From an uncultured Chlorobiaceae bacterium (GTDB lineage: Bacteria > Bacteroidota > Ignavibacteria > UBA10030 > SZUA-254), in NCBI GenBank assembly GCA_964520905.1, contig CAZFQL010000001.1, positions 183,216 through 247,215 of the forward strand: 64,000 nucleotides of DNA. Direction: 5' to 3'. The translations under genes were made by a program, and so were the position numbers. Of the stretch, positions 1 to 21,696 are shown one piece after another (the first letter of the stretch is position 1; every line of letters begins with the position of its first letter). The notes beneath the pieces are model-generated. The model saw nothing but the letters and a program-made list of their open reading frames with translations, was not told the origin of the DNA and did no database searches.

Positions 1-1143
1 TTGCCAGAACCTGTATAACCAACTATAGCTATAGTCGTGCCTTGAGGAATTTCGAGATTAATATTTTTTAGTGTCGGTGATTGCGCGTTATTATGAGTGA
101 AGGAAACATTCCGAAACTCTATTCTTCCCTGAATATCTTTTATAGAAAAATTTGTTTGATGGGTATCGCGTATATCCGGCTGGGTGTCCATAATCTTCAT
201 CAATCTTCTCAGCGAAGCCGCACCTTGCTGAAGAAGATTCGTCACCCAACCGAATGCGATCATGGGCCAAATCAAAAGTGTGAGATATCCGAAGAACGCC
301 GTAAGCGTACCGATGGACATTTCACCGTTAATGACTTTCAGACCGCCCACGTATACAATGATAACGAGCGAAGAGCCGACGAGCAAAAACATCAGGGGCC
401 AGAGTATCGATTGGATTCTTGCTAAGACGAGATTTTTCTTAAGATATTCCCAGCTCAATTTTTTAAAGCGATCTATCTCATACTCTTCGCGCACGTATGC
501 TTTCACAATTCTTATGCCTGATAAATTTTCCTGTGCGCGTGTGGTGAGAATGGAAAATTGTTCCTGCCGTTCTTCGAATTTTTTGTGAATTTGTTTTCCA
601 AGTTTATAAACAGCATAAGAAACAAGCGGCATAGGGATAAGAGCGTAAAGCGTCAACTGCCAGTTTGTTAGAAACATCATCACGAGAACCATAGAGAGCG
701 TCATGATAGTATCGCTTGGATACATGATGCCGGGACCGACCACGTTGCGTACCGAACCGATGTCGTTCGTAGCGTGCGCCATCAGATCACCGGTTGGCGT
801 GTTCTGAAAATACGAGAGCGAAAGTTTCTGGATGTGTTTAAGAAAATCATTTCGCAGATCAAACTCAATATGCCGCGAAACAACGATGATTGTTTGTCGC
901 GTAAGATAAGTGAAAATACCGGCGATAAGATTTAACGCGACAAGAGAGGCGGCATAAATAAGCAGATTTGTTCCATCGATGTTTTTTGTTTCAAGTCCGA
1001 TTTTCAATTTATCGATAGCATTACCGACAATCCGCGGCTGGAAGACGGTGAAGACATTACTCATCACAACTGTGAGGAGTCCCCACAACAGCGTGCGTTT
1101 GTATTTTTTAAGATATGGGATTAAGCGGAGTAATGATTTCATA
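1..1143 (-). CDS. ABC exporter permease/ATP-binding protein (MsbA-like), N-terminal portion; gene runs off the window start
   Basis: The ORF track omits it because there is no stop codon inside the window. My own minus-strand translation from the ATG at 1141-1143 gives MKSLLRLIPYLKKYKRTLLWGLLTVVMSN..., a six-helix ABC exporter transmembrane domain. It is followed by GRIEFRNVSFTHNN...LEIPQGTTIAIVGYTGSG, the start of Walker A, at the window edge. Confidence 0.75.
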
Positions 1144-1197
1144 TAGTTCTGATAAGCAACTCACATCCAACATAAGTTTAAATTCGAACGTGAGCCG

Positions 1198-1244
1198 CAC
1201 TTTAAAGATACGAAACTATTACATAAATTTCTTGGGGGGCAGAG
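1198..1244. repeat. Left copy of an imperfect direct repeat flanking the VapBC cassette (partner at 1989-2061)
   Basis: The 11-mer cactttaaaga is exact in both copies (1198-1208 and 1989-1999). A 34-nt core, agatacgaaactattacataaatttcttgggggg (1206-1239), matches 2023-2056 at 31/34. The right copy carries a 23-nt insertion. Confidence 0.6.
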
Positions 1245-1655
1245 CTATATTGATCGCTGAAGAATTTGATTCGGTGTTTTTCTCCCTCGCGTAGTTCGAT
1301 CAAAATGCTCGTCGTAACTGACAATCGAGAGATCATATTTTATTGCAGCAACGTACTGGTATGCATCGTCAAAATCAAGTTTAAATTCCCGAGATGCTTC
1401 GATGACAGATTTTAGATCCTGAACCGAAAGAGTCAACGCCGATATTCCGCCATTAAGAATTACATCGTCGACAAATTGCTCGAATGCAATATGTTGATGA
1501 CGCTGGAAAAGTAACAATCCGATTGAATGTAATGCAAAGTCACTAATATAGAAATTGATATTTCCATTGAGGAGAAGAAGTGATTTTGCTTCCGCAGATT
1601 TCTCTTGGTCTAATATTATTTCCAAGAAAATGTTTGTGTCGAGAAGAATGTTCAC
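1245..1655 (-). CDS. PIN-domain toxin (VapC-like) of a type II TA pair
   Basis: 136 aa with the MNILLDTNIF... N-terminus typical of PIN domains. It overlaps the upstream small gene by 4 nt. Confidence 0.75.
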   Translation of the reverse strand: MNILLDTNIFLEIILDQEKSAEAKSLLLLNGNINFYISDFALHSIGLLLFQRHQHIAFEQFVDDVILNGGISALTLSVQDLKSVIEASREFKLDFDDAYQYVAAIKYDLSIVSYDEHFDRTTRGRKTPNQILQRSI

Positions 1656-1912
1656 TTTTCTCTGATTCTTAATTTGGTAATGTCATGTTGAAGATCAACA
1701 GATGTGTACGTACCTCGCATATTTTTAAGCGCTCCCGCCCAATCAAATTTTAATGTTTTATGTTCCCGATGCTGGTGCTTTTTGATCAAAAATTCGATAA
1801 AGTCCTCGATTTCTTGACGCAAAGATGGGGATAATTGCTTAATTTTTTCTTCGATGTAACTCATTGTTATCTCTCGCAATGTCATTTTAATATACGAAGA
1901 GAATTGAATCAA
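1652..1912 (-). CDS. Antitoxin partner of the PIN toxin (small DNA-binding/antitoxin-like protein)
   Basis: 86-aa ORF immediately upstream of, and overlapping, the PIN gene, in classic antitoxin-toxin order. Confidence 0.55.
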   Translation of the reverse strand: MIQFSSYIKMTLREITMSYIEEKIKQLSPSLRQEIEDFIEFLIKKHQHREHKTLKFDWAGALKNMRGTYTSVDLQHDITKLRIREK

Positions 1913-1988
1913 GTCAACCTTGCGAAAAGCAACTTGCGAAAAGCAACCTTATTTAATCATTTAAATCATAAGCGTTAAATGAAATGAT

Positions 1989-2061
1989 CACTTTAAAGAA
2001 TTTCCAGAAAAGTCGTATTCAAAAGATACAAAACTATAACATAAATTTCTTGGAGGGAGTT
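1989..2061. repeat. Right copy of the direct repeat flanking the VapBC cassette; abuts the stop codon of the acyl-CoA ligase gene
   Basis: See 1198-1244. The copy ends 1 nt before the TGA (complement, 2062-2064) of the 2062-3582 gene. Confidence 0.6.
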
Positions 2062-3582
2062 TCAGGTTATCTGAATAATATCTCGTACTCTTTCGGTAAT
2101 CGTTCTGAAGTCAATCTTGCCGCTACCTGTTTTCGGCATCTCTGAGAGAACAATAAACTTGCTCGGGATTGCAATCTTGGGAAGTTGTCCCGACATTTTT
2201 TGAAGAATTGCTTTCTCATCAATCTGTTGTGTAACGGCAGCAACAATCCGGGATCCACGCAAGGCATCCGGCACTTCGACAACACAGCACTCAACATCGG
2301 CAGGAAGCAGATGTTCAAGAACATCTTCCACTTTTATCAGAGACACCATCTCTCCGCCGATCTTAAGAAAGCGTTTCAATCTTCCAACATGCCACAGATA
2401 ACCATCGGCATCCATATATCCCATATCACCGGTATCGTACCAGCCATGACGAATGCTCAACGATGTTTGCTCAAAATCATCAAAGTACCCTTTCATCACA
2501 TTATCGCCTTTGACAAGTATTTTACCTATTTCTCCAACTTTGCACTCTTCACTGGTTTCATAATTCTCTACTCTTACCTTGACGCCGTCAATCGGTCTGC
2601 CAACACTACCGGGACGATTATACTCTAATGTATTAACCGTAATCGCAGGACTTGTTTCGGTCGCTCCGTATGCTTCGAGTAAAATCTTATTATGCCTTTT
2701 CATGAATTCCTCCCTTAATGCATCCGGACACTTGTCCGCACCCGAGAGAAGTATGCGTGTAGATTTGAAATCGCCCGGCTTCGAATTCCTGAGATATCCC
2801 CAGAAGAACGTAGGTGTTCCAGCCATTAACGTGACATTTTCTTCACGAACGATATCACATATAGTTTTAAAATCCAACGGGTTGGCATATGTTACAATTG
2901 TCATCCCGACTATCAGCGGAACCCATAGATTTGCAGTCTGACCGAATACATGGAAGTATGGAAGGTTAGCCAGAAAAATATCATCTGATGAAAAAGAATA
3001 TGCTTTTGACAAACTTTCATAGTTGGAGAAAATATTTCTATGTGTAAGCTGAACAGCTTTCGGATCTTTTTCGCTTCCACTGGTAAATAGAATCAGAAGA
3101 GTATCATTTTCATTGCCGCGATGAATTCTTTTTAGGAGTCGCTCAACCGGAAGGCCTATGGTTAATATTGCTTTCATCTTATCTAATAGAGTTACAGACT
3201 TCATGATATCTTCGAGATAAATCATACCGTCAACATGAGGACAATTAATTTTCGCAAGAAGTGCTTTTGAGGTGATTATAGTCTTGAACGCACATTTCTT
3301 TTGAGCGAATTCACAGTTCATTGCAGCGCCAGTTGAGTAGTTGATCATCACCGGAATCCGGCCGCTCATAAGCGTGCCTAATATCGATAAAACTGATCCG
3401 GCTGAATTTGGCAGCATAATTCCAAGAAAACCAGGAGCGTATTTCTGAAATTTTTTAAAAAGAATGAGTGCGCCGATCAATGCGCGTTTGTAGGTCACCC
3501 GGCGATCGAGAGTTCTATCTATAATTGCTAATTTCTTCTCGTATTGTTTTGCAATTCGGACAAATTGTTGATGTAATAACAT
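2062..3582 (-). CDS. AMP-dependent synthetase/ligase (acyl-CoA or acyl-ACP synthetase family)
   Basis: 506 aa carrying the adenylate-forming motifs TSGSEKDPKAV, YGATETSP, GWYDTGDMGYMDADGYLWHVGR and a C-terminal PKTGSGKIDFR. Confidence 0.85.
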   Translation of the reverse strand: MLLHQQFVRIAKQYEKKLAIIDRTLDRRVTYKRALIGALILFKKFQKYAPGFLGIMLPNSAGSVLSILGTLMSGRIPVMINYSTGAAMNCEFAQKKCAFKTIITSKALLAKINCPHVDGMIYLEDIMKSVTLLDKMKAILTIGLPVERLLKRIHRGNENDTLLILFTSGSEKDPKAVQLTHRNIFSNYESLSKAYSFSSDDIFLANLPYFHVFGQTANLWVPLIVGMTIVTYANPLDFKTICDIVREENVTLMAGTPTFFWGYLRNSKPGDFKSTRILLSGADKCPDALREEFMKRHNKILLEAYGATETSPAITVNTLEYNRPGSVGRPIDGVKVRVENYETSEECKVGEIGKILVKGDNVMKGYFDDFEQTSLSIRHGWYDTGDMGYMDADGYLWHVGRLKRFLKIGGEMVSLIKVEDVLEHLLPADVECCVVEVPDALRGSRIVAAVTQQIDEKAILQKMSGQLPKIAIPSKFIVLSEMPKTGSGKIDFRTITERVRDIIQIT

Positions 3583-3615
3583 AGTCTATTTTATTTATTT
3601 AATTGTTTGTTTGAT

Positions 3616-3864
3616 CTAAGTTTCAACAGATATTTCCAACTGAGAAAGAAAAGAATGCTTATTAGTATCATTGGTCCATAGATTACCAAATATACCGGCA
3701 GTAGAAATCTTTGCCAATATCAATATACATAAAATATCACAGGAGTAAAAAAGATAATTCAGCCAAACAATTCCCATCGCCATGAGATAATAAGAGCAAA
3801 AACTATCACTCCCGTTGGAATCAAATGTATTGTTATAGCAGGCAGAGTTTCCCGGAAAACGCAC
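3616..3864 (-). CDS. Hypothetical small protein (GTG start); weak call
   Basis: Only an ORF in otherwise unassigned DNA, with one hydrophobic stretch; no recognisable motif. Confidence 0.2.
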   Translation of the reverse strand: MRFPGNSACYNNTFDSNGSDSFCSYYLMAMGIVWLNYLFYSCDILCILILAKISTAGIFGNLWTNDTNKHSFLSQLEISVET

Positions 3865-3952
3865 TCCCTATTGAATACATCGAGAGTAAAAATGGATGTG
3901 AATAGTGCAGAGAGAATGCACAAAGCGCGTAGAGACCAGAAAAGAATTTTAT

Positions 3953-4030
3953 TTATCCAATATTCTCAAACCCCGTATGCTTATGCAGCGCTTTCGGCAC
4001 AATCACTTTTCCTTCGGGGTCTGGTAATAC
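3953..4030 (-). pseudogene. Relic duplicate of the serS 3' end (last ~23 codons plus stop)
   Basis: About 85% nucleotide identity to 4662-4739, the true serS 3' end. My minus-strand translation gives ...PDPEGKVIVPKALHKHTGFENIG* against SerS ...TPEGKVIVPKVLHKYTGFEVIG*. The similarity begins exactly at the stop codon. Confidence 0.7.
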
Positions 4031-4071
4031 CGGGCAATTAATTCATCGAATAAATTCAAGCTAATTTGGGT

Positions 4072-4368
4072 TTAGCGCTTTGATTTTTTCTTTAGGATAT
4101 CTCGCGATGTATGAAGCACAGCAAGAATATCAATTTGATCTGGTTTGATGTAATAAATTATTCGAAATGGATGTTCAATAACTTCGCGAATCTGTTTAAT
4201 GTTAAATTCCGGTACGGACCTACCCGAAAGAGGAAAATCTGTAATTTGTTGTGATCGTCGTGTTATGCGATCAACTATTCTTGTCGCGTAATCGGCAGAT
4301 GTATGAGATATGTAATCGTGGATGCTTTGCAGATGATCGGTGGCTGTATCTGTCCAATGGACATTCAC
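4072..4368 (-). CDS. RelE/ParE-family toxin (type II TA)
   Basis: 98 aa of the size and composition expected for RelE/ParE; overlaps the upstream 68-aa gene by 4 nt. Confidence 0.7.
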   Translation of the reverse strand: MNVHWTDTATDHLQSIHDYISHTSADYATRIVDRITRRSQQITDFPLSGRSVPEFNIKQIREVIEHPFRIIYYIKPDQIDILAVLHTSRDILKKKSKR

Positions 4369-4658: not shown

Positions 4659-5924
4659 CTATCCAATCACCTCAAACCCAGTATATTTATGCAACACTTT
4701 TGGCACAATCACTTTTCCCTCCGGTGTCTGGTAATGCTCTATGAGTGCCGCAACAACTCTTGGCAGCGCCAGCGCTGAGCCGTTTAGTGTGTGAATAAAT
4801 TCCGGCTTTCCTTCTCCGCGCGGACGGAAACGGATATTCATTCGCCGCGCCTGAAACGATTCAAAGTTGCTAATTGACGAAACCTCGAGCCATCGCTGCT
4901 GCCCGATAGACCATACCTCAAGATCGTATTTCTTCGTCTGTGTAAATCCCATGTCGCCCGTGCACATGAGAAGCGTGTGATAATGCAGTCCCAATTTCTG
5001 GAGAAGCAGTTCGGCATCTTCGCGTAAACTCTCAAGTTCGTTGTACGAGACACCCGGGTGGACAAATTTTACTAATTCAACTTTATCGAACTGGTGCAGT
5101 CTGTTTAAACCGCGAACATCCTTACCATACGAACCGGCTTCGCGGCGAAAGCATGGCGTGTACGCACAATATTTTACAGGGAGCTGATCTTCCTTCAGAA
5201 TTTCGTCTCGGTGAATGTTTGTTACCGGAACTTCCGCTGTCGGAACGAGATACAATTCATCCTTAGTTGCAACGTACATCAAATCTTCTTTATCTGGAAG
5301 TTGTCCTGTGCCTGTTGCGCTGTTTGCATTCACCATAAGCGGCGGCTGAATTTCTTTGTATCCTCGCTTCGCGGCTTCATCAAGAAAGAAATTGATCAAC
5401 GCACGCTGTAACTGTGCACCCTGTCCTTTATATAAAGGAAAGCCCGCGCCTGAAATCTTTACACCACGCTCAAAGTCGATGATATCAAGCTTTTCAGCAA
5501 GTTCCCAGTGAGGTTTCGGTTTGAAATCAATTACAGGTGCTTCGCCCCACTTTGAAATTTCTTTGTTGTCGGTCGGCAGTTTTCCAACAGGAACAGATGG
5601 GTGTGGAATATTTGGAATAGTGAGCAGGAGTTGATTCAAAGATTTTTCAATCAGCGCGAGGGCATCATCAATAGATTTGATCTCTGTTTTCACTTCATCC
5701 ATTTGTGAGATCGCTGTTGCGGCATCTTTTTTTTCACGCTTCAGTTTACCGATTTCATCTGAAACGACGTTGCGTTTGTTTTTTAATACTTCAACCTTCT
5801 GAAGAAGTTCTCTTCGTTGTAAATCAAACTTCAGCGCTTCATCAATATTATCTTCGCCTCCTTTTTTTAGGATGCCTTCCTTAACTAAGCCTGGGTGTTC
5901 ACGAATGAATTTAATATCAAGCAT
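4659..5924 (-). CDS. serS: Seryl-tRNA synthetase
   Basis: 421 aa with an N-terminal coiled-coil and a class II catalytic core; full-length SerRS architecture. Confidence 0.95.
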   Translation of the reverse strand: MLDIKFIREHPGLVKEGILKKGGEDNIDEALKFDLQRRELLQKVEVLKNKRNVVSDEIGKLKREKKDAATAISQMDEVKTEIKSIDDALALIEKSLNQLLLTIPNIPHPSVPVGKLPTDNKEISKWGEAPVIDFKPKPHWELAEKLDIIDFERGVKISGAGFPLYKGQGAQLQRALINFFLDEAAKRGYKEIQPPLMVNANSATGTGQLPDKEDLMYVATKDELYLVPTAEVPVTNIHRDEILKEDQLPVKYCAYTPCFRREAGSYGKDVRGLNRLHQFDKVELVKFVHPGVSYNELESLREDAELLLQKLGLHYHTLLMCTGDMGFTQTKKYDLEVWSIGQQRWLEVSSISNFESFQARRMNIRFRPRGEGKPEFIHTLNGSALALPRVVAALIEHYQTPEGKVIVPKVLHKYTGFEVIG

Positions 5925-6082
5925 TTATTTCTTTAGTCCTTTTCAGTGTTAATGTTTCTCTCGTTAAGTATATATAATGTTGTTATAGATCTACAAAGAA
6001 AATCCTAAGCACGAAAAACTAACATCTAAGTAATATTTGAATCCCAATTCCCCAACCCGGCTTCTAGTATATGTATTTTGGA

Positions 6083-6130
6083 ATTGGATTTTAGAATTTG
6101 TTTAGGATTTAGAGATTAGGATTTAGAATT
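6083..6130. repeat. Three degenerate tandem copies of GGATTT(T)AGA(R)WT in the serS upstream intergenic region
   Basis: ggattttagaattt, ggatttagagatt and ggatttagaattt at 6083, 6096 and 6118. The same word occurs inverted at 21100-21260. Confidence 0.4.
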
Positions 6131-6137
6131 TTCGCGT

Positions 6138-7040
6138 TCATGATTTCAGATGTAAATTATTTTCGTTTTGTTTGTTAAACGCCTCAAGTTGGTTTTTAAA
6201 GACCGTAAGCCCATGTTCAACGCCGGACATTTTCACATCGAGTTCGGTTTGTGCTTTAAGTATGATCAATCCGGATTTTAAAGGGCGCGGCGCCGGTTGT
6301 ATAAAAGTAGAAGACTTGACCGGAATTATCAGCTTTTTATTGAAATTAAATACGCGTGCAAGTGTAAGAGCAAAATCATATCTGCTGATCATGTCGGAAC
6401 CGGCGATATGATAAACGCCTGTTCGATCAAGCTCGATAATTTTTAAGATTGCATAGGCGAGATCATCGGCAAGTGTTGGATTACCGATCTGATCGTCAAC
6501 CACACGAATGGGCTTGCCGTCTTTCAGATTATTATACAGCCAGAGCGCGAAGTTCGATTTAACATTCAGTCCGAGTCCGTAGAGTACCATTGTTCGAATG
6601 ATCGTAGCGGGAACACCACTGGTTAGCAGAAGATTTTCACTTGCAAGCTTTGTTCTTCCGTAGTAACTGATAGGATTCGGACGATCGACTTCGCTGTAAG
6701 GACCACTTTTGCCGTCGAACACATAATCAGTGGAAAGATGAATGAGTTTCGCACCCACAAGTTTTGCTGCATAAGCCAGGTTTTCAACAGATCCAACATT
6801 TACCTGCCAGGCAAGTGCGCGTTCCTTTTCACAAAGATCAACATCGGTTACCGCGGCTGTATGCACAATAACATCCGGCTCGAATTCATCTATAACTTTT
6901 CTAACATCCTGTCGGTGGGTCAAATCGATTTTACGGTAAGGCAAAATTTCTTCGTCGAAGACAGAGTGTTCCTCCAATGATAATAATAAGAGAGGATAAC
7001 GTGTTCGTGAAAGAATCTCAACAGTCTTCTGTCCAAGCAA
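6138..7040 (-). CDS. NAD(P)-dependent reductase, RmlD (dTDP-4-dehydrorhamnose reductase)-like; the real N-terminus probably lies upstream (to about 7079)
   Basis: STDYVFDG and the YxxxK motif SYYGRTK. The Rossmann motif KRIIVTGSNGLLG is encoded in-frame upstream of the TTG start called in the track. Confidence 0.7.
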   Translation of the reverse strand: MLGQKTVEILSRTRYPLLLLSLEEHSVFDEEILPYRKIDLTHRQDVRKVIDEFEPDVIVHTAAVTDVDLCEKERALAWQVNVGSVENLAYAAKLVGAKLIHLSTDYVFDGKSGPYSEVDRPNPISYYGRTKLASENLLLTSGVPATIIRTMVLYGLGLNVKSNFALWLYNNLKDGKPIRVVDDQIGNPTLADDLAYAILKIIELDRTGVYHIAGSDMISRYDFALTLARVFNFNKKLIIPVKSSTFIQPAPRPLKSGLIILKAQTELDVKMSGVEHGLTVFKNQLEAFNKQNENNLHLKS

Positions 7041-17416: not shown

Positions 17417-18151
17417 ATGTTTTCACAACAACTTATATCGAAACTAAAAAAAGCTGACTCGATCGCAGTCTTCACAGGTGCAGGCATCTCAGCCGAAAGC
17501 GGTGTGCCGACATTCAGAGGTGAAGATGGACTCTGGAAAAAATTCCGCCCTGAAGAGCTTGCAAACTTCGATGCCTTCATGCGCAATCCCGATCTCGTGT
17601 GGGAGTGGTACCGATATCGAAAGAAGATCATCGCCGACATAAAACCGAATGCCGGACATTATGCACTGGCGGAAATGGAAAAGCGCCACGAATATTTTGC
17701 TATCATCACTCAGAACATTGATAATTTGCACCGTCGCGCTGGAAGCAAGAACGTTTACGAGCTTCATGGAAACATAGAGCGGAATTACTGCATAGACTGC
17801 CGGAAGAGCTACTCAAACGAAGAGATAATCAAACAAGAAAAAGCTCCCCGATGCAACTGCGGCGGATTGATACGACCGGATGTTGTGTGGTTCGGTGAAT
17901 TTCTTCCTCAGGATCAGTGGGATGCCGGAGAAGCGGCGGCAGATCGTGCTGACATCTTTTTCTCAATAGGAACATCTGCTGTTGTTTATCCTGCCGCATC
18001 GCTTCCGATGATAGCAAAGCGAGCAGGGGCTTACGTGGTGGAGATTAATTTGGAGAGAACAGAGTTGAGCCATCAAGCAGATGAAGTGCTGCTTGGTAAA
18101 TCGGGTGAGATTCTTCCAAAACTTATTGATGCCTGCTATCAAAACAAATAA
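17417..18151 (+). CDS. cobB: NAD-dependent protein deacylase (sirtuin, CobB type)
   Basis: GAGISAESGVPTFRG, QNIDNLH and the Zn ribbon CIDC...CNCGG. Confidence 0.9.
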   Translation: MFSQQLISKLKKADSIAVFTGAGISAESGVPTFRGEDGLWKKFRPEELANFDAFMRNPDLVWEWYRYRKKIIADIKPNAGHYALAEMEKRHEYFAIITQNIDNLHRRAGSKNVYELHGNIERNYCIDCRKSYSNEEIIKQEKAPRCNCGGLIRPDVVWFGEFLPQDQWDAGEAAADRADIFFSIGTSAVVYPAASLPMIAKRAGAYVVEINLERTELSHQADEVLLGKSGEILPKLIDACYQNK

Positions 18152-18633
18152 ACACGGTTAAGATGAATAGAATTTATATATTGGACCGTCTAAAAAGAAG
18201 GATTGTCATTCTGAACGAGCGTAGCGAAGTGAAGAATCTGACATAATTTAGTAGATACGAGATGTTTCTCCCGCTGAAGCGGGATCAACATGACAACATA
18301 ACGAGGTTCTCGGACAGATTGCTTATGGGTGTGAGATAAAAAAACTTTGACTTTTGTTTTGACAAGCTTTATATTCATGCTGAAGTAAATTTTTGAGTTG
18401 ATGACTCGGAGCGGTTGCGGTGAATAAGTTTTCGATTTGGTGATTTTCTATTTATATTGATACACGATAATGGAAATGATATTATATTTCAAACAAAACC
18501 AAATGTCCGACATGAGCGGGATAAACGCCTTCGTTAATACACTACGTTATGGGCAAGGCTAAAAAGACCGCCAAACCTGACAGACAGAACCGTGAATAAC
18601 TTGACAGTAATTTTGACCGTTTCATAGACACAA

Positions 18634-18745
18634 TTAAGGGCAGTTCTAAAAATTCAAAAACGTTTTGCGAACTCTGCGAATTCTTTGCGTTCTCTGCGTT
18701 TATATTTTTAAATAACATATATTTAGGACTGCCCTTAATTAAATT
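18634..18745. promoter_or_regulatory. Inverted repeat aattaagggcagt/actgcccttaatt bracketing four tandem TGCG(W)(W)(Y)TC repeats, just upstream of the methyltransferase start
   Basis: aattaagggcagt at 18633-18645 and its complement at 18728-18740. tgcgaactc, tgcgaattc, tgcgttctc and tgcgttt recur at a 9-10 bp period. TAAATTTG (18741-18748) resembles a Bacteroidota-type -7 promoter box. Confidence 0.35.
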
Positions 18746-18765
18746 TGCAAGGAAACTTTAGGACA

Positions 18766-19746
18766 ATGAAAGTAAAAGAACCATTATTCGATTATATAAG
18801 CCCCGACATTGATTATCAAATCAAAAAGGGCGACTGCTTGACTGTTCTTCAAAAAGTTGAGGACGGAAAATTTGACCTTATTTTAACTTCACCGCCTTAT
18901 AACGTTGGCAAGTCATACGAGACAAAGACGAGCATTGAAAAATACTTAGAGACACAGGACGAAATTATAAGCGAACTTGTTCGGACACTTTCTGACAAAG
19001 GAAATCTCTGTTGGCAGGTTGGTAACTATGTCGACAAAGGAGAAATTTTTCCCCTTGACATTTACTATTACCAAATCTTTAAAAAGTATGGACTAAAACT
19101 TCGCAATCGAATTATTTGGCATTTCGGACACGGGCTTCACGCTTCAAACCGTTTCAGTGGACGCTATGAAACATTGTTATGGTTCAGCAAGACAGACGAC
19201 TATATTTTTAATCTTGACAATGTTAGAGTTCCTTCAAAGTATCCAGGTAAACTACATTTCAAAGGACCAAAAAAAGGATTGCCTTCCGGCAATCCGCTTG
19301 GGAAAAACCCAAGCGATATTTGGGAAATTATTCAACAAGACTGGGAAAATGGTATGTGGAATATTCCTAATGTAAAATCTAATCATCCAGAAAAAACAAA
19401 CCACCCTTGCCAGTTTCCAATAGAACTTGTTGAACGTTGCGTTCTTGCTTTGACAGAAGAAAACAGTTGGGTTCTTGACCCTTTCTCTGGTGTAGGCTCA
19501 ACTGTGATTGGAGCTATAAAAAACGACCGCAACGCAATGGGAATAGAAAAGGAAGAAAAATATTGCAAAATTGCCAAACAAAGAATTAAAGATTACAACG
19601 AAGGAAATTTAAAATTCAGACCTATTAATAAACCAATTCATAAGCCGACAGCAAAAGATAAAATTGCTCAAATACCAAAAGAATGGTTAGAACTTGAACA
19701 TATTAACGGCAATGGAAAATCTAACGGCTTAAACGGAAAACATTAA
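18766..19746 (+). CDS. DNA methyltransferase, beta-class N4-cytosine/N6-adenine type (SPPY)
   Basis: Motif IV LTSPPY lies near the N-terminus and motif I DPFSGVGST near the C-terminus, which is the beta-class circular permutation. Start set at the ATG preceded by AGGA. The region is AT-rich relative to its flanks. Confidence 0.85.
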   Translation: MKVKEPLFDYISPDIDYQIKKGDCLTVLQKVEDGKFDLILTSPPYNVGKSYETKTSIEKYLETQDEIISELVRTLSDKGNLCWQVGNYVDKGEIFPLDIYYYQIFKKYGLKLRNRIIWHFGHGLHASNRFSGRYETLLWFSKTDDYIFNLDNVRVPSKYPGKLHFKGPKKGLPSGNPLGKNPSDIWEIIQQDWENGMWNIPNVKSNHPEKTNHPCQFPIELVERCVLALTEENSWVLDPFSGVGSTVIGAIKNDRNAMGIEKEEKYCKIAKQRIKDYNEGNLKFRPINKPIHKPTAKDKIAQIPKEWLELEHINGNGKSNGLNGKH

Positions 19747-20360
19747 TGAAAATAGCACAAAAATATTCGCATTTAAACGGAGAAGAATATCTTATCGTTC
19801 ATCACAAAAAACTTTATAAAGAAATCGTTGAAACTATTGAGAGCATTGATGCTTCAAAGTTTATGACTAAAGAGAGTAAAGAAAAAACCATGAGCGGAAA
19901 AATGCTTTATAGTCCTATTGAACTCAATAAAACATTCAATACTAGATTCAACAAACTTGGTTGGAATGAAAGTCGTTATCAATATTACATAACAACAGAG
20001 CAAAAATTATTACCTGAATTAATCCTGTTACCTTATGAGAAGCAGAAAGAATTTCTTATTTCAAAAGGAATTAAGTCGCCAATATCCTCTTACAAACAAA
20101 CAGATTTTGTGAAAGAACAAATTGCCGTTGAGGTTCAATTTGGTAAATATGCTTTTGTTGCATTTGACCTATTCGTAAAACATTTGCTTTTTTATTCTGG
20201 TGGTGTAATTAATCTTGGTATTGAAGTTTTGCCGACAAAGAAAATGCAATCACAAATGAGTAGCGGTGTTGCTTACTATGAAGGTGAAGTTTATAATGTA
20301 TTGCGACACGGACGAAATAATCCACCTGTTCCTTTACTTATTTTAGGCATTGAACCATAA
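19746..20360 (+). CDS. Type II restriction endonuclease, BglII/BstYI-like (putative)
   Basis: Start overlaps the MTase stop (TAATG). IAVEVQFGKYAF resembles the BglII E-V-Q active-site segment. 204 aa, a typical type IIP endonuclease size. Confidence 0.5.
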   Translation: MKIAQKYSHLNGEEYLIVHHKKLYKEIVETIESIDASKFMTKESKEKTMSGKMLYSPIELNKTFNTRFNKLGWNESRYQYYITTEQKLLPELILLPYEKQKEFLISKGIKSPISSYKQTDFVKEQIAVEVQFGKYAFVAFDLFVKHLLFYSGGVINLGIEVLPTKKMQSQMSSGVAYYEGEVYNVLRHGRNNPPVPLLILGIEP

Positions 20361-20505
20361 GCGGACGAAAAGCCCAACCCATAACAGCACATTGGCAAAA
20401 AAGCGGGTTTCTTGGTTATATAAAGTGCAGTTCTCCTAATAAACTTTTGTGGTAGGTTGCCAATTTCGTGCTTCTATATACGCTTCCTCGCCAATCTGCA
20501 AACCG

Positions 20506-21051
20506 TTACGTCTTCCACTTAATCGTACATCCAATCGAGAACGTTTCCGGAAATTTCACCTCTTTACCTGTAAGCAATGCATCTAGCGCATCGCGGAGAT
20601 AATTTTCTTTTACCGCTTTTGGGTTTTCCCAGTTGTCGTCCATCTTGCCGCTGTAACTTAGTTTTCTATCTTTGTTAAAGACAAAGAACTGCGGCGTATG
20701 TGTTGCACCGAACGCTTCAGCGGTTTGCTGGTCAGCATCTCGTAGGTATTTAAAGTTAAACCCCTTTGCTTTTGCCCGCTTTACCATCTCATCAAAATTA
20801 TCGTCGGGATAGTTTTTCTCGTCGTTCGAGTTTATTGCAACAAGCTGAACTCCTTTACCGGCGTAATCTTTTTGCACCGCAATCATTCTATCCTCGTATG
20901 CCTTTACATACGGGCAGTGGTTGCATGAGAAGACAATGATCAAAATGTTCACATCCTTGAAATCGGAGGAAGAATATTTTTTTCCATCAACGCCGGGAAG
21001 GTTTTTGAACTCCGGCATCACGTCGTTTATGTTAAGTTTATTTCCTTTCAT
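20506..21051 (-). CDS. Thioredoxin-fold thiol-disulfide oxidoreductase (AhpC/TSA/TlpA-like)
   Basis: CNHCP CxxC motif in a 181-aa thioredoxin-like protein. Confidence 0.8.
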   Translation of the reverse strand: MKGNKLNINDVMPEFKNLPGVDGKKYSSSDFKDVNILIIVFSCNHCPYVKAYEDRMIAVQKDYAGKGVQLVAINSNDEKNYPDDNFDEMVKRAKAKGFNFKYLRDADQQTAEAFGATHTPQFFVFNKDRKLSYSGKMDDNWENPKAVKENYLRDALDALLTGKEVKFPETFSIGCTIKWKT

Positions 21052-21099
21052 TTTATCTCCTAAAAAATTAATAACTCATGTTATGCGAAATGGCGGCGG

Positions 21100-21260
21100 T
21101 TAAAAATTCGAAGCTCTAAATCCGAAATTCTAAATAAATTCGAATTTCCAAAATCCAAAACTGCCTTAATAGCACCAATTTTCAGATTTTTGGGAATTCG
21201 TATTTTGGATTTATTTAGTACTTCGAAATTCGCGCTTAGGATTTTTGCAATAAATCATAC
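21100..21260. repeat. Imperfect palindromic intergenic element built from the same GGATTTAGA/TCTAAATCC words as 6083-6130
   Basis: ctctaaatccgaaattctaaat ... ttttggatttatttag. The arms pair as aaatccaaaa/ttttggattt and gaatttcc/ggaattcg. Confidence 0.35.
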
Positions 21261-21315
21261 CGTGTATGACATCAGTTGATAAGATTAGATTATCCATCAC
21301 ACCGAATAGCCGTCT

Positions 21316-21696
21316 TTATTTTGTCATACCAATATACATCCCGCCAAAATAAGGAACTAACCAAATCAGCCAAACGATGAAGCTGTACCGATGGAATCCT
21401 GTTCGGGCTGTTTCGCTTCCCCTCCGTACCACAGAGGTTGCCCATAAAGCATGGGCTAACATAAGCCAAAGGGCGATCTGTCCTGTAAGTGTGTGTGACG
21501 CTAGAAGGTCGAAAGGTCCTTTCGCCAACCGGTGCATAGCCCAGGTGCCCGTGACATCGAAAATGAAACCGGTCCAGAAAGAAGCAACATGCCAGGGTTT
21601 AATGTAACGAGCGATCCGCTCCGACCAAACACCGAGGGAGTAGAAAACTAATGCGAGTGTGATAAGAGTCGTGGATATTATCAATAGGGCAGACAT
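21316..21696 (-). CDS. Small integral membrane protein (about 4 TM), hypothetical
   Basis: 126 aa, strongly hydrophobic, with W-rich helices. Confidence 0.45.
   Translation of the reverse strand: MSALLIISTTLITLALVFYSLGVWSERIARYIKPWHVASFWTGFIFDVTGTWAMHRLAKGPFDLLASHTLTGQIALWLMLAHALWATSVVRRGSETARTGFHRYSFIVWLIWLVPYFGGMYIGMTK

Follow-up and report, generated by a model that had tools for sequence, protein, structure and literature searches.

How a compact restriction-modification (RM) system comes to lie in an ordinary chromosomal gap, with a recombination-site signature in place of mobility genes, is the question raised by one islet in a stretch of 64,000 nucleotides (nt) from an uncultured Chlorobiaceae bacterium of the Ignavibacteria (contig CAZFQL010000001.1), which was analysed as a whole and is called the window below. 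The islet, at positions 18152-20505, lies between a gene for a Sir2/CobB-type deacetylase (cobB) and one for a Redoxin/AhpC-TSA thioredoxin-like protein. An earlier reading made from the letters alone (the sequence-only reading) had described it as AT-rich, with a drop in guanine-plus-cytosine (GC) content relative to these two genes, and this was borne out: the GC content is 0.356, against 0.425 in the whole window, 0.469 in the left flank and 0.433 in the right flank. The islet is the lowest-GC stretch of the window; a GC content this low is reached by only 0.3% of stretches of its length. We hold with reasonably good confidence that it is an intact two-gene type IIP RM system of the BstYI type, shaped as an integron-type gene cassette and solitary in its chromosomal gap. 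The two genes are as follows.

18766-19746, plus strand: beta-class amino-methyltransferase of 326 amino acids (PF01555, 6.5e-52; PADLOC MTase_II, 9e-74)
19746-20360, plus strand: BstYI-like type IIP endonuclease of 204 amino acids (BstYI 1sdo_A, E 3.3e-69; PF09195, E 1.1e-24; PADLOC REase_II, 4.7e-72)

The Pfam and PADLOC matches agree with the compact type IIP pair, an SPPY beta-class methyltransferase plus a BglII-family endonuclease, that had been proposed before, and the data settle the identities and motifs of both genes. The open reading frame (ORF) of the methyltransferase spans 18745-19746 from a TTG codon; because the similarity of all relatives begins at the ATG at 18766 (MKVKEPLF), the gene start is placed there. 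Its stop codon TAA (19744-19746) shares one base with the ATG of the 204-residue endonuclease gene (19746-19748), forming a TAATG junction with the 1-nt overlap already noticed by the sequence-only reading, and the methyltransferase gene lies directly 5' of the endonuclease gene in every fetched locus with upstream sequence (about 75 loci). Motif IV, SPPY at residue 42, stands N-terminal to motif I, DPFSGVGST at residue 238, again as first read from the letters. This is the beta-class order, a group defined with motif IV before motif I and with DPPY or SPPY as motif IV (PMC2890505), and SPPY is present in 120 of 120 homologues.

When the endonuclease was compared with the sequences of solved structures by phmmer, its residues 1-204 matched residues 1-203 of BstYI (1sdo_A), whereas BglII was reached only at E 0.19. 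BLASTP aligned the endonuclease with BstYI over the full length at 53% identity and 73% positives with one gap, and the Pfam family PF09195 (Endonuc-BglII) scored 87.5 bits against a cut-off of 26. The BglII-like E-x-Q catalytic segment that the sequence-only reading had pointed out is present (IAVEVQFGKYAF): D120, E129 and Q131 align with D119, E128 and Q130 of BstYI and are invariant in 24 aligned homologues. The D-x8-E-x-Q-FG-K segment is kept in 115 of 120 homologues and MSSG[VI]AYYEGE in 100 of 120. From this similarity we infer that the endonuclease shares the three-dimensional fold of BstYI; an AlphaFold2 model built on a shallow alignment of 24 close homologues had a mean predicted local distance difference test (pLDDT) score of 39.5.

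The limits of the unit that carries these genes can be placed by its ends.

18547-20505, plus strand: putative gene cassette, bounded by the rule of crossover between G and TT at G18546/T18547 and at G20505/T20506; homology stops near both
18546-18560, plus strand: left arm GTTATGGGCAAGGCT, the R' core GTTATGG plus a stem extension, complementary to 20371-20385
20371-20385, plus strand: right arm AGCCCAACCCATAAC, the R'' box CCATAAC (20379-20385) plus a stem extension, complementary to the left arm
20375-20511, plus strand: attC-like imperfect palindrome of 137 nt (nhmmer profile, 86.4 bits, E 1e-24)

The two arms are the only matches of the arm sequence in the 64 kb. The cassette measures 1959 bp, or 1858 bp without a miniature inverted-repeat transposable element (MITE)-like insert and its TTAA duplication, which are described below, and the inferred right boundary coincides with the end coordinate, 20505, that the islet had been given before. 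The palindrome has the order of an attC site: an R'' box ending in AAC, L'' ATTGGCAAAAAAGCG, a loop, L' CGCTTCCTCGCCAAT and R' GTTACGT (20505-20511). The minus-strand thioredoxin-like gene has its stop codon (TTA at 20506-20508 on the plus strand) within R', and the last base of the cassette abuts this codon. In addition, the start of the cassette, GTTATGGGC, is complementary to its own R'' box, GCCCATAAC.

Related loci, designated here by L numbers, show that this element is not peculiar to the window. In many of them a complete imperfect palindrome of 95-141 nt lies 3' of the endonuclease stop codon and runs from AAC through a stem, a loop of about 60 nt and the complementary stem to GTT. 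An element profile was built from 11 copies in 9 loci and searched by nhmmer; MAFFT plus RNAalifold had yielded only 8 consensus pairs with misregistered stems, and the sequence profile was used instead of a covariance model. The search found 36 copies, without exception on the gene strand. In 9 loci they form arrays of 2-5: five in L121, four in L095, three each in L090, L091, L094 and L099, and two each in L092, L096 and L098. Each gene block in these arrays is followed by one element. The five copies of L121 have 84% column identity, with the variable bases flanking the TAAC and GTTA cores, and folding of the L121 element gives a long hairpin (z -2.7) in which the GATAAC and GTTATC boxes are paired.

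The arrays allow the ends of successive units to be compared. When the 12 nt that begin with the GTT of an element are set against the reverse complement of the AAC box in the element that follows, 9.4 of 12 positions agree; the figure comes from 18 cassettes, non-RM cassettes included. As a control, the same comparison within one integrated element gave 5.8 of 12, and the complementarity rule holds in 17 of the 18 cassettes. Because this rule for the ends is the signature of integron gene cassettes, we read the units as cassettes with crossover between G and TT. The arms also covary. Across 16 registered arm pairs, which were chosen for a visible inverted repeat (about a quarter to a third of the non-redundant loci show one), 82% of the cells are paired, 12 of 15 pairs have changed on both sides and none of 500 shuffles was as good, while slid registers gave 25-44%; an alignment-free test of matched against mismatched flanks gave p ~2e-4. 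The arms of other loci differ from those of the window yet stay complementary to each other (GTTATATGC/GCATATAAC, GTTACCGGC/GCCGGTAAC, GTTAGGTGC/GCACCTAAC and GTTAACTGC/GCAGTTAAC), and only GTT and AAC are invariant in them.

The boundaries of homology lie close to the same ends. Over 1275 locus pairs they cluster at about -120 and at +20 to +80 of the coding block and hardly ever lie outside the range from about -140 to +80. Similarity to the window at the DNA level starts at 18546 in L002 and at 18735 or 18766 in the others, and ends at 20360-20390. The surroundings are unrelated: the RM pair lies between nuo genes and yjeF in L002, between rml genes and a DUF2200 gene on the complete Ignavibacteriales chromosome of L003, and inside a menaquinone (men) operon, between menB-like and menA-like genes, in the Bacteroidota bin of L007. 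Both proteins have thousands of homologues, and the best 120 of each are 83-97% identical and come from Ignavibacteriales, Bacteroidales, Chitinophagaceae, Moheibacter and WOR-3; NCBI names the homologous endonucleases 'BglII/BstYI family type II restriction endonuclease'. Copies of the cassette whose proteins are 80-97% identical have spread among Ignavibacteriota, Bacteroidota and further lineages. Integrons have been reported in Ignavibacteriae and Chlorobi (PMC9024848), and type II RM systems among integron cassettes (10.1101/2024.07.02.601686).

Several of these loci have features of their own. The L121 array (84-4220) is rich in defence and toxin-antitoxin cassettes; it encodes a 197-residue protein with a CAP12/Pycsar-type TIR match (1.8e-6) and a PIN-domain toxin (3.7e-18) preceded by an ORF of 72 amino acids. 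The RM pair of L172 (1-15100; ctg13503c, 6.0 Mb) has group II introns around it on the opposite strand, with six reverse-transcriptase genes, one of which is just a maturase-domain fragment, and with corresponding intron RNA domains (Rfam). Immediately past the endonuclease stop codon the AAC box is broken, after GCCA, by the end of one intron. These introns resemble attC-targeting group IIC introns. Beside the RM pair of L127, repeats of about 50 nt recur every 80 bp (~170-530 and 4830-6140) as an array like those of clustered regularly interspaced short palindromic repeats (CRISPR), with a repeat resembling GTTGTGAATTGCTTTCAAAAATTTGTAATTTTACAGACG. More distant copies (~54%) occur in the Burkholderia phages BcepIL02 and DC1 and in a few plasmids. 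The phage endonucleases are full length at 53-54% identity and stand beside a DNA ligase gene (BcepIL02, FJ937737/NC_012743, 22858-23466; DC1, JN662425/NC_018452, 22627-23235); in these records the methyltransferase is not listed under the endonuclease match.

At the window locus the cassette would presumably have arrived by integrase-mediated recombination at a GTT secondary site. Resistance cassettes are known to insert at secondary sites. The empty site before insertion is predicted to have read ...GTTAATACACTACG joined directly to TTACGTCTTCC, and the solitary cassette would now lie between a native leader-like element 3' of cobB and the stop codon of the thioredoxin-like gene. A clean empty site was not found for the window locus, and the mechanism of insertion is accordingly a presumed one. 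This and the following points weigh against a cassette origin. The attC-like stem in the window is weak (folding z -0.4 and +0.3), and the attC identity of 20375-20511 rests on its architecture, as set by a profile of related elements in place of the standard attC covariance model. The profile found no second attC-like element upstream in the window, even at E up to 10, which makes the element single there. A motif scan, a weak test, found no H.LRH tyrosine-recombinase box in any frame of the 64-kb window, and no integron integrase gene was called in any fetched locus. The loci with arrays are all on short contigs. The cassette of the window stands in a core chromosomal gap with neither attI nor an array, and because no intI was found, the locus is not filed as a complete integron. 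A degenerate preceding attC at 18524-18545 was considered and is doubtful, as GTTAATAC is shared with L010 as native DNA and the profile is empty upstream. The cassette is probably no longer mobile.

The partner methyltransferase would protect the host genome, most likely by N4-methylcytosine (m4C or N4mC) within the site of the endonuclease, and RGATm4CY is its likely product as judged from the sequence. Adenine methyltransferases of the beta class, as far as known, carry DPPY, whereas all the homologues examined here have SPPY as motif IV. BstYI is insensitive to N6-methyladenine (m6A) in GATC (PMC10734518), and its partner must therefore protect through cytosine; M.BstYI itself has been grouped, only as 'possibly', with the N4mC enzymes M.BamHI and M.BglII (PMC2890505). 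These observations argue against the alternative that the methyltransferase makes m6A (RGm6ATCY), which we regard as unlikely, though it keeps appreciable weight. The closest relatives of the methyltransferase with solved structures are m6A enzymes, with M.RsrI the best at 3e-26 and MboIIA also of this kind, whereas N4 enzymes follow at 4e-15 and M.PvuII at 1e-6, and homology thus leaves the methylated base unsettled. Moreover, RGATCY systems that combine m6A with BglII/BstYI-family endonucleases exist, namely Nph3I (PMC10734518) and that of A. baumannii A118 (PMC10287943). The Joint Genome Institute (JGI) names homologues 'adenine-specific', which would also favour m6A; such database names ('site-specific', 'adenine-specific') are generic or automatic and were set aside as evidence on the base.

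Whether the pair is still expressed turns on the DNA upstream of the methyltransferase gene, where two features are found.

18561-18765, plus strand: predicted cassette-borne promoter/leader region, with the motif GTGAATAACTTGAC at 18592-18605 and the TAAATTTG box at 18740-18747
18638-18734, no strand assigned: MITE-like insertion of 97 bp, with TTAA at 18634-18637 and 18735-18738

Conservation with L002 covers 18546-18637 and the DNA from 18735 on, and is weaker with L003; a TAnnTTTG box precedes the ATG by 24-35 nt in all loci shown (21 inspected). The TAAATTTG box fits TAnnTTTG, the Bacteroidota -7 consensus of Bacteroides and Flavobacterium promoters. A promoter function is accordingly predicted for this region from its sequence. 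Both genes would probably be co-transcribed from this promoter within the unit, and translation is likely coupled through the TAATG overlap, so that the methyltransferase would be made first. No gene for a controller (C) protein was found; the only small upstream ORFs (62 and 58 amino acids, minus strand) are without a Pfam match and lie in non-conserved DNA.

The MITE-like insertion would have hit the promoter region after the cassette had arrived. Its terminal inverted repeats of about 22 nt are 91% complementary, its interior is a run of TTTGCG/TCTGCG repeats, and it is absent from the otherwise collinear L002; no other copies were found in the window or in 169 fetched loci. It sits directly 5' of the TAAATTTG box, between this box and the GTGAATAACTTGAC motif, and so parts upstream promoter elements from the -7-like box, which may alter expression and tells against an undisturbed system. 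The window system could then be a silenced or decaying remnant, uncoupled from its promoter by the insert and fixed in place by an eroded attC-like site, with the weak stem and the fact that no integrase was found pointing the same way. We consider such a remnant improbable, if worth bearing in mind, since both ORFs are full length, keep all motifs and are 94-97% identical to their closest homologues. Selection would act quickly against an endonuclease gene that lacked its methyltransferase, or against the opposite imbalance, and the under-representation of RGATCY in the window, described next, also argues against a remnant.

BstYI recognises and cuts RGATCY (PMC6007267). Because the endonuclease is 53% identical to BstYI from end to end, RGATCY is most likely its target, much likelier than AGATCT, and at this level of identity the specificity is a strong expectation. 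The enzyme would most likely act as a homodimer that cuts unmethylated R^GATCY. The sequence-only reading had allowed AGATCT or RGATCY as GATC-core hexamers; the core has held up, and of the two RGATCY is favoured. A third-order model predicts about 50 RGATCY sites in the window, and 32 are present; among 32 comparable site classes only one ranks lower. This is weak but consistent evidence of restriction pressure; the depletion is modest and was measured on 64 kb only. Other sites are also scarce: GGCC was observed 24 times against 129 expected and CTAG 15 times against 57, and all GATC sites together reach 0.73 of the expected number. The shortage of GGCC suggests that a HaeIII-type system somewhere in the lineage has exerted pressure.

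Recognition of AGATCT only, as by BglII, or of another GATC-containing site would be compatible with the shared Pfam family and with the ease with which specificity can shift by few substitutions. It is nevertheless quite improbable given the gulf between the BglII and BstYI matches. K134 and S173 of the endonuclease, within the conserved FGK and MSSG segments, are conserved and occupy the positions of K133 and S172 in BstYI, the residues that Samuelson and Xu reportedly mutated in 2002 to narrow the specificity towards AGATCT. Furthermore, all four RGATCY hexamers are rare in the window and AGATCT is not singled out.

The imperfect inverted repeats of 15-45 nt that bracket the unit would also suit a non-autonomous, transposon-like RM module, that is, a mobile insertion cassette with terminal inverted repeats moved in trans by a transposase. 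Such 'transposon-like' RM units flanked by inverted repeats have been described (PMC2853133), and no integrase was found here. What tells against this model is a directly oriented second copy of the 'left end' downstream, together with the arrays. There, complete elements of one orientation lie on both sides: the left arm forms the 3' end of the upstream one and the right arm the 5' end of the downstream one, and non-RM neighbours follow the same rule of end complementarity. With only GTT and AAC invariant, the arms covary freely, which fits recognition of structure over sequence. Inspection by eye revealed no convincing target-site duplication, and the 64 kb hold no other copy of the arms. 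A transposon-like module is thus very improbable. Two further explanations of the paired arms were rejected. Pairing between the 5' and 3' ends of the messenger RNA would not account for the covariation, since about 80 nt separate the left arm from the conserved TAnnTTTG box downstream of it, which probably puts the arm outside the transcript; and a host palindrome split by the insertion does not fit arms that travel with the unit into unrelated contexts and lack another copy in the 64 kb. Least probable of all is that the palindromes are ordinary repetitive extragenic palindromes or terminators and that the RM pair moved otherwise, for example by homologous recombination after transformation, since such palindromes would neither yield cassette-specific complementarity between post-GTT bases and the next pre-AAC bases in 17 of 18 cassettes nor accompany the gene pair into unrelated loci, even though in L091 the genes ahead of the elements, one for a ClC channel and one for a large secreted protein, could be core genes, and the window copy folds weakly.

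With the integron-type cassette as the preferred reading, the DNA between cobB and the cassette can be placed. The sequence-only reading had taken about 590 bp of upstream DNA, with a hairpin, as a relic of the vehicle that brought the genes. The hairpin cccgctgaagcggg does exist at 18270-18283. The proposed origin does not hold, as 18152-~18538 aligns with the cobB-proximal intergenic DNA of L010 and L011, both of which are without this RM system. The upstream 590 bp is not vehicle debris; it is mostly native intergenic DNA, and the rest is the promoter region of the cassette and the 97-bp insert. L010 is the closest relative of the window's host, sharing 92% identity in CobB and about 90% in the flanks. 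Its equivalent site carries genes for a 233-residue protein, a 137-residue protein and a CAAX-protease-like (Rce1-like) protein, and L011 carries genes for a small membrane protein and a 401-residue alpha/beta-hydrolase-like protein. The profile search detected no attC-like element in L010 or L011. The DNA from cobB to the thioredoxin-like gene forms a variable locus (18196-18545 and 20506 in the window, 6735-9296 in L010, 6729-9026 in L011).

Two small hairpins lie 3' of cobB, GTCATTCTGAACGAGCGTAGCGAAGTGAAGAATCTGAC and the cccgctgaagcggg stem (18205-18242 and 18262-18291), and a sequence variant of the first, GTCATCCCGC...CGGAATTTGAC, occurs at the equivalent place in L010 (~6790-6850). They look like native terminator-like or repeat-like hairpins, and the folding energy of their region is not unusual (z 0.15). 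Farther downstream of cobB is a non-coding element of about 145 nt (18331-18475; 6950-7094 in L010 and 6810-6912 in L011), which is about 78% identical to L011 against about 68% for coding regions and is thus better conserved than the neighbouring genes. It opens with a sigma-70-like promoter, TTGACT-17-TATATT, at 18347-18375, and it could be a small RNA, or else the leader of the variable gene found behind it in relatives. An Rfam scan of 17900-21400 gave only a chance match to a coronavirus pseudoknot (E 0.47) and none for the 145-nt element.

Set beside known systems, the pair is closest to the BstYI system of Geobacillus stearothermophilus Y406 (1SDO, 1VRR, 2P0J; R^GATCY). The endonucleases are nearly equal in length (204 and 203 amino acids), their catalytic D/E/Q residues and their FGK and SSG segments are identical, and the partner is an amino-methyltransferase in both. 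The hosts differ, an Ignavibacteria-like bacterium here and a member of the Bacillota there, and activity, cut site and methylated base are predictions for the window system. With BglII and BamHI the system shares the Pfam family (PF09195, BglII) and the E-x-Q segment. The BglII system reportedly has a gene for a controller protein, which is lacking here, and similarity to BglII is marginal. The methyltransferases of BglII and BamHI are beta-class N4mC enzymes (PMC2890505). Nph3I of Nitratiruptor phage NrS-3 and the A. baumannii A118 cluster have the endonuclease superfamily and the probable RGATCY target in common with the window system (PMC10734518, PMC10287943). Their enzymes are blocked by m6A and paired with adenine methyltransferases, and the A118 cluster adds a helix-turn-helix regulator, whereas the window system has an SPPY partner and no regulator.

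As regards its form, the unit resembles integron gene cassettes in having a gene block followed by an imperfect palindrome of 95-141 nt with AAC...GTT ends, in the same-strand arrays of related loci, in a start complementary to its own R'' box and in the promoter that it is predicted to carry; neighbouring cassettes in those arrays encode a PIN toxin and a TIR-like protein. It differs from integron arrays in that the window has a single cassette with one attC-like site and neither integrase, attI nor array. It resembles the transposon-like RM units of Furuta, Abe and Kobayashi (2010, PMC2853133) in being compact, in lacking a mobility gene and in having imperfect inverted repeats within otherwise syntenic DNA. 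Unlike the repeats of those units, the ones found here are the halves of a recombination-site stem (R' and R'') belonging to array elements of one orientation, and a short target duplication was not seen. All components of the islet belong to known kinds, and a solitary cassette in an ordinary chromosomal gap is likewise already known.

The enzyme pair itself is routine, an uncharacterised and probably mesophilic BstYI isoschizomer with a likely N4-cytosine partner, and it would serve chiefly to interpret methylomes of Ignavibacteria-like organisms or to supply enzymes. Of greater use is the route of arrival, since the islet bears the signature of a recombination site where mobility genes might be sought. 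The same cassette can be traced through dozens of metagenomic loci, in arrays and alone, and it offers a concrete and testable case of integron cassettes spreading defence genes in Bacteroidota and Ignavibacteriota, with one solitary cassette fixed in a core locus. We suggest, tentatively and at somewhat less than even confidence, that the BstYI-type pair may be among the most widely travelled integron cassettes of Bacteroidota and Ignavibacteriota, and that its many solitary copies, in ordinary chromosomal gaps and in one case inside the menaquinone operon, show integron recombination at GTT secondary sites to be a general route by which compact RM islets without a vehicle are seeded at a distance from any integron. 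If true, this would provide a mechanism for the long-noted insertions of RM systems without visible mobility genes.

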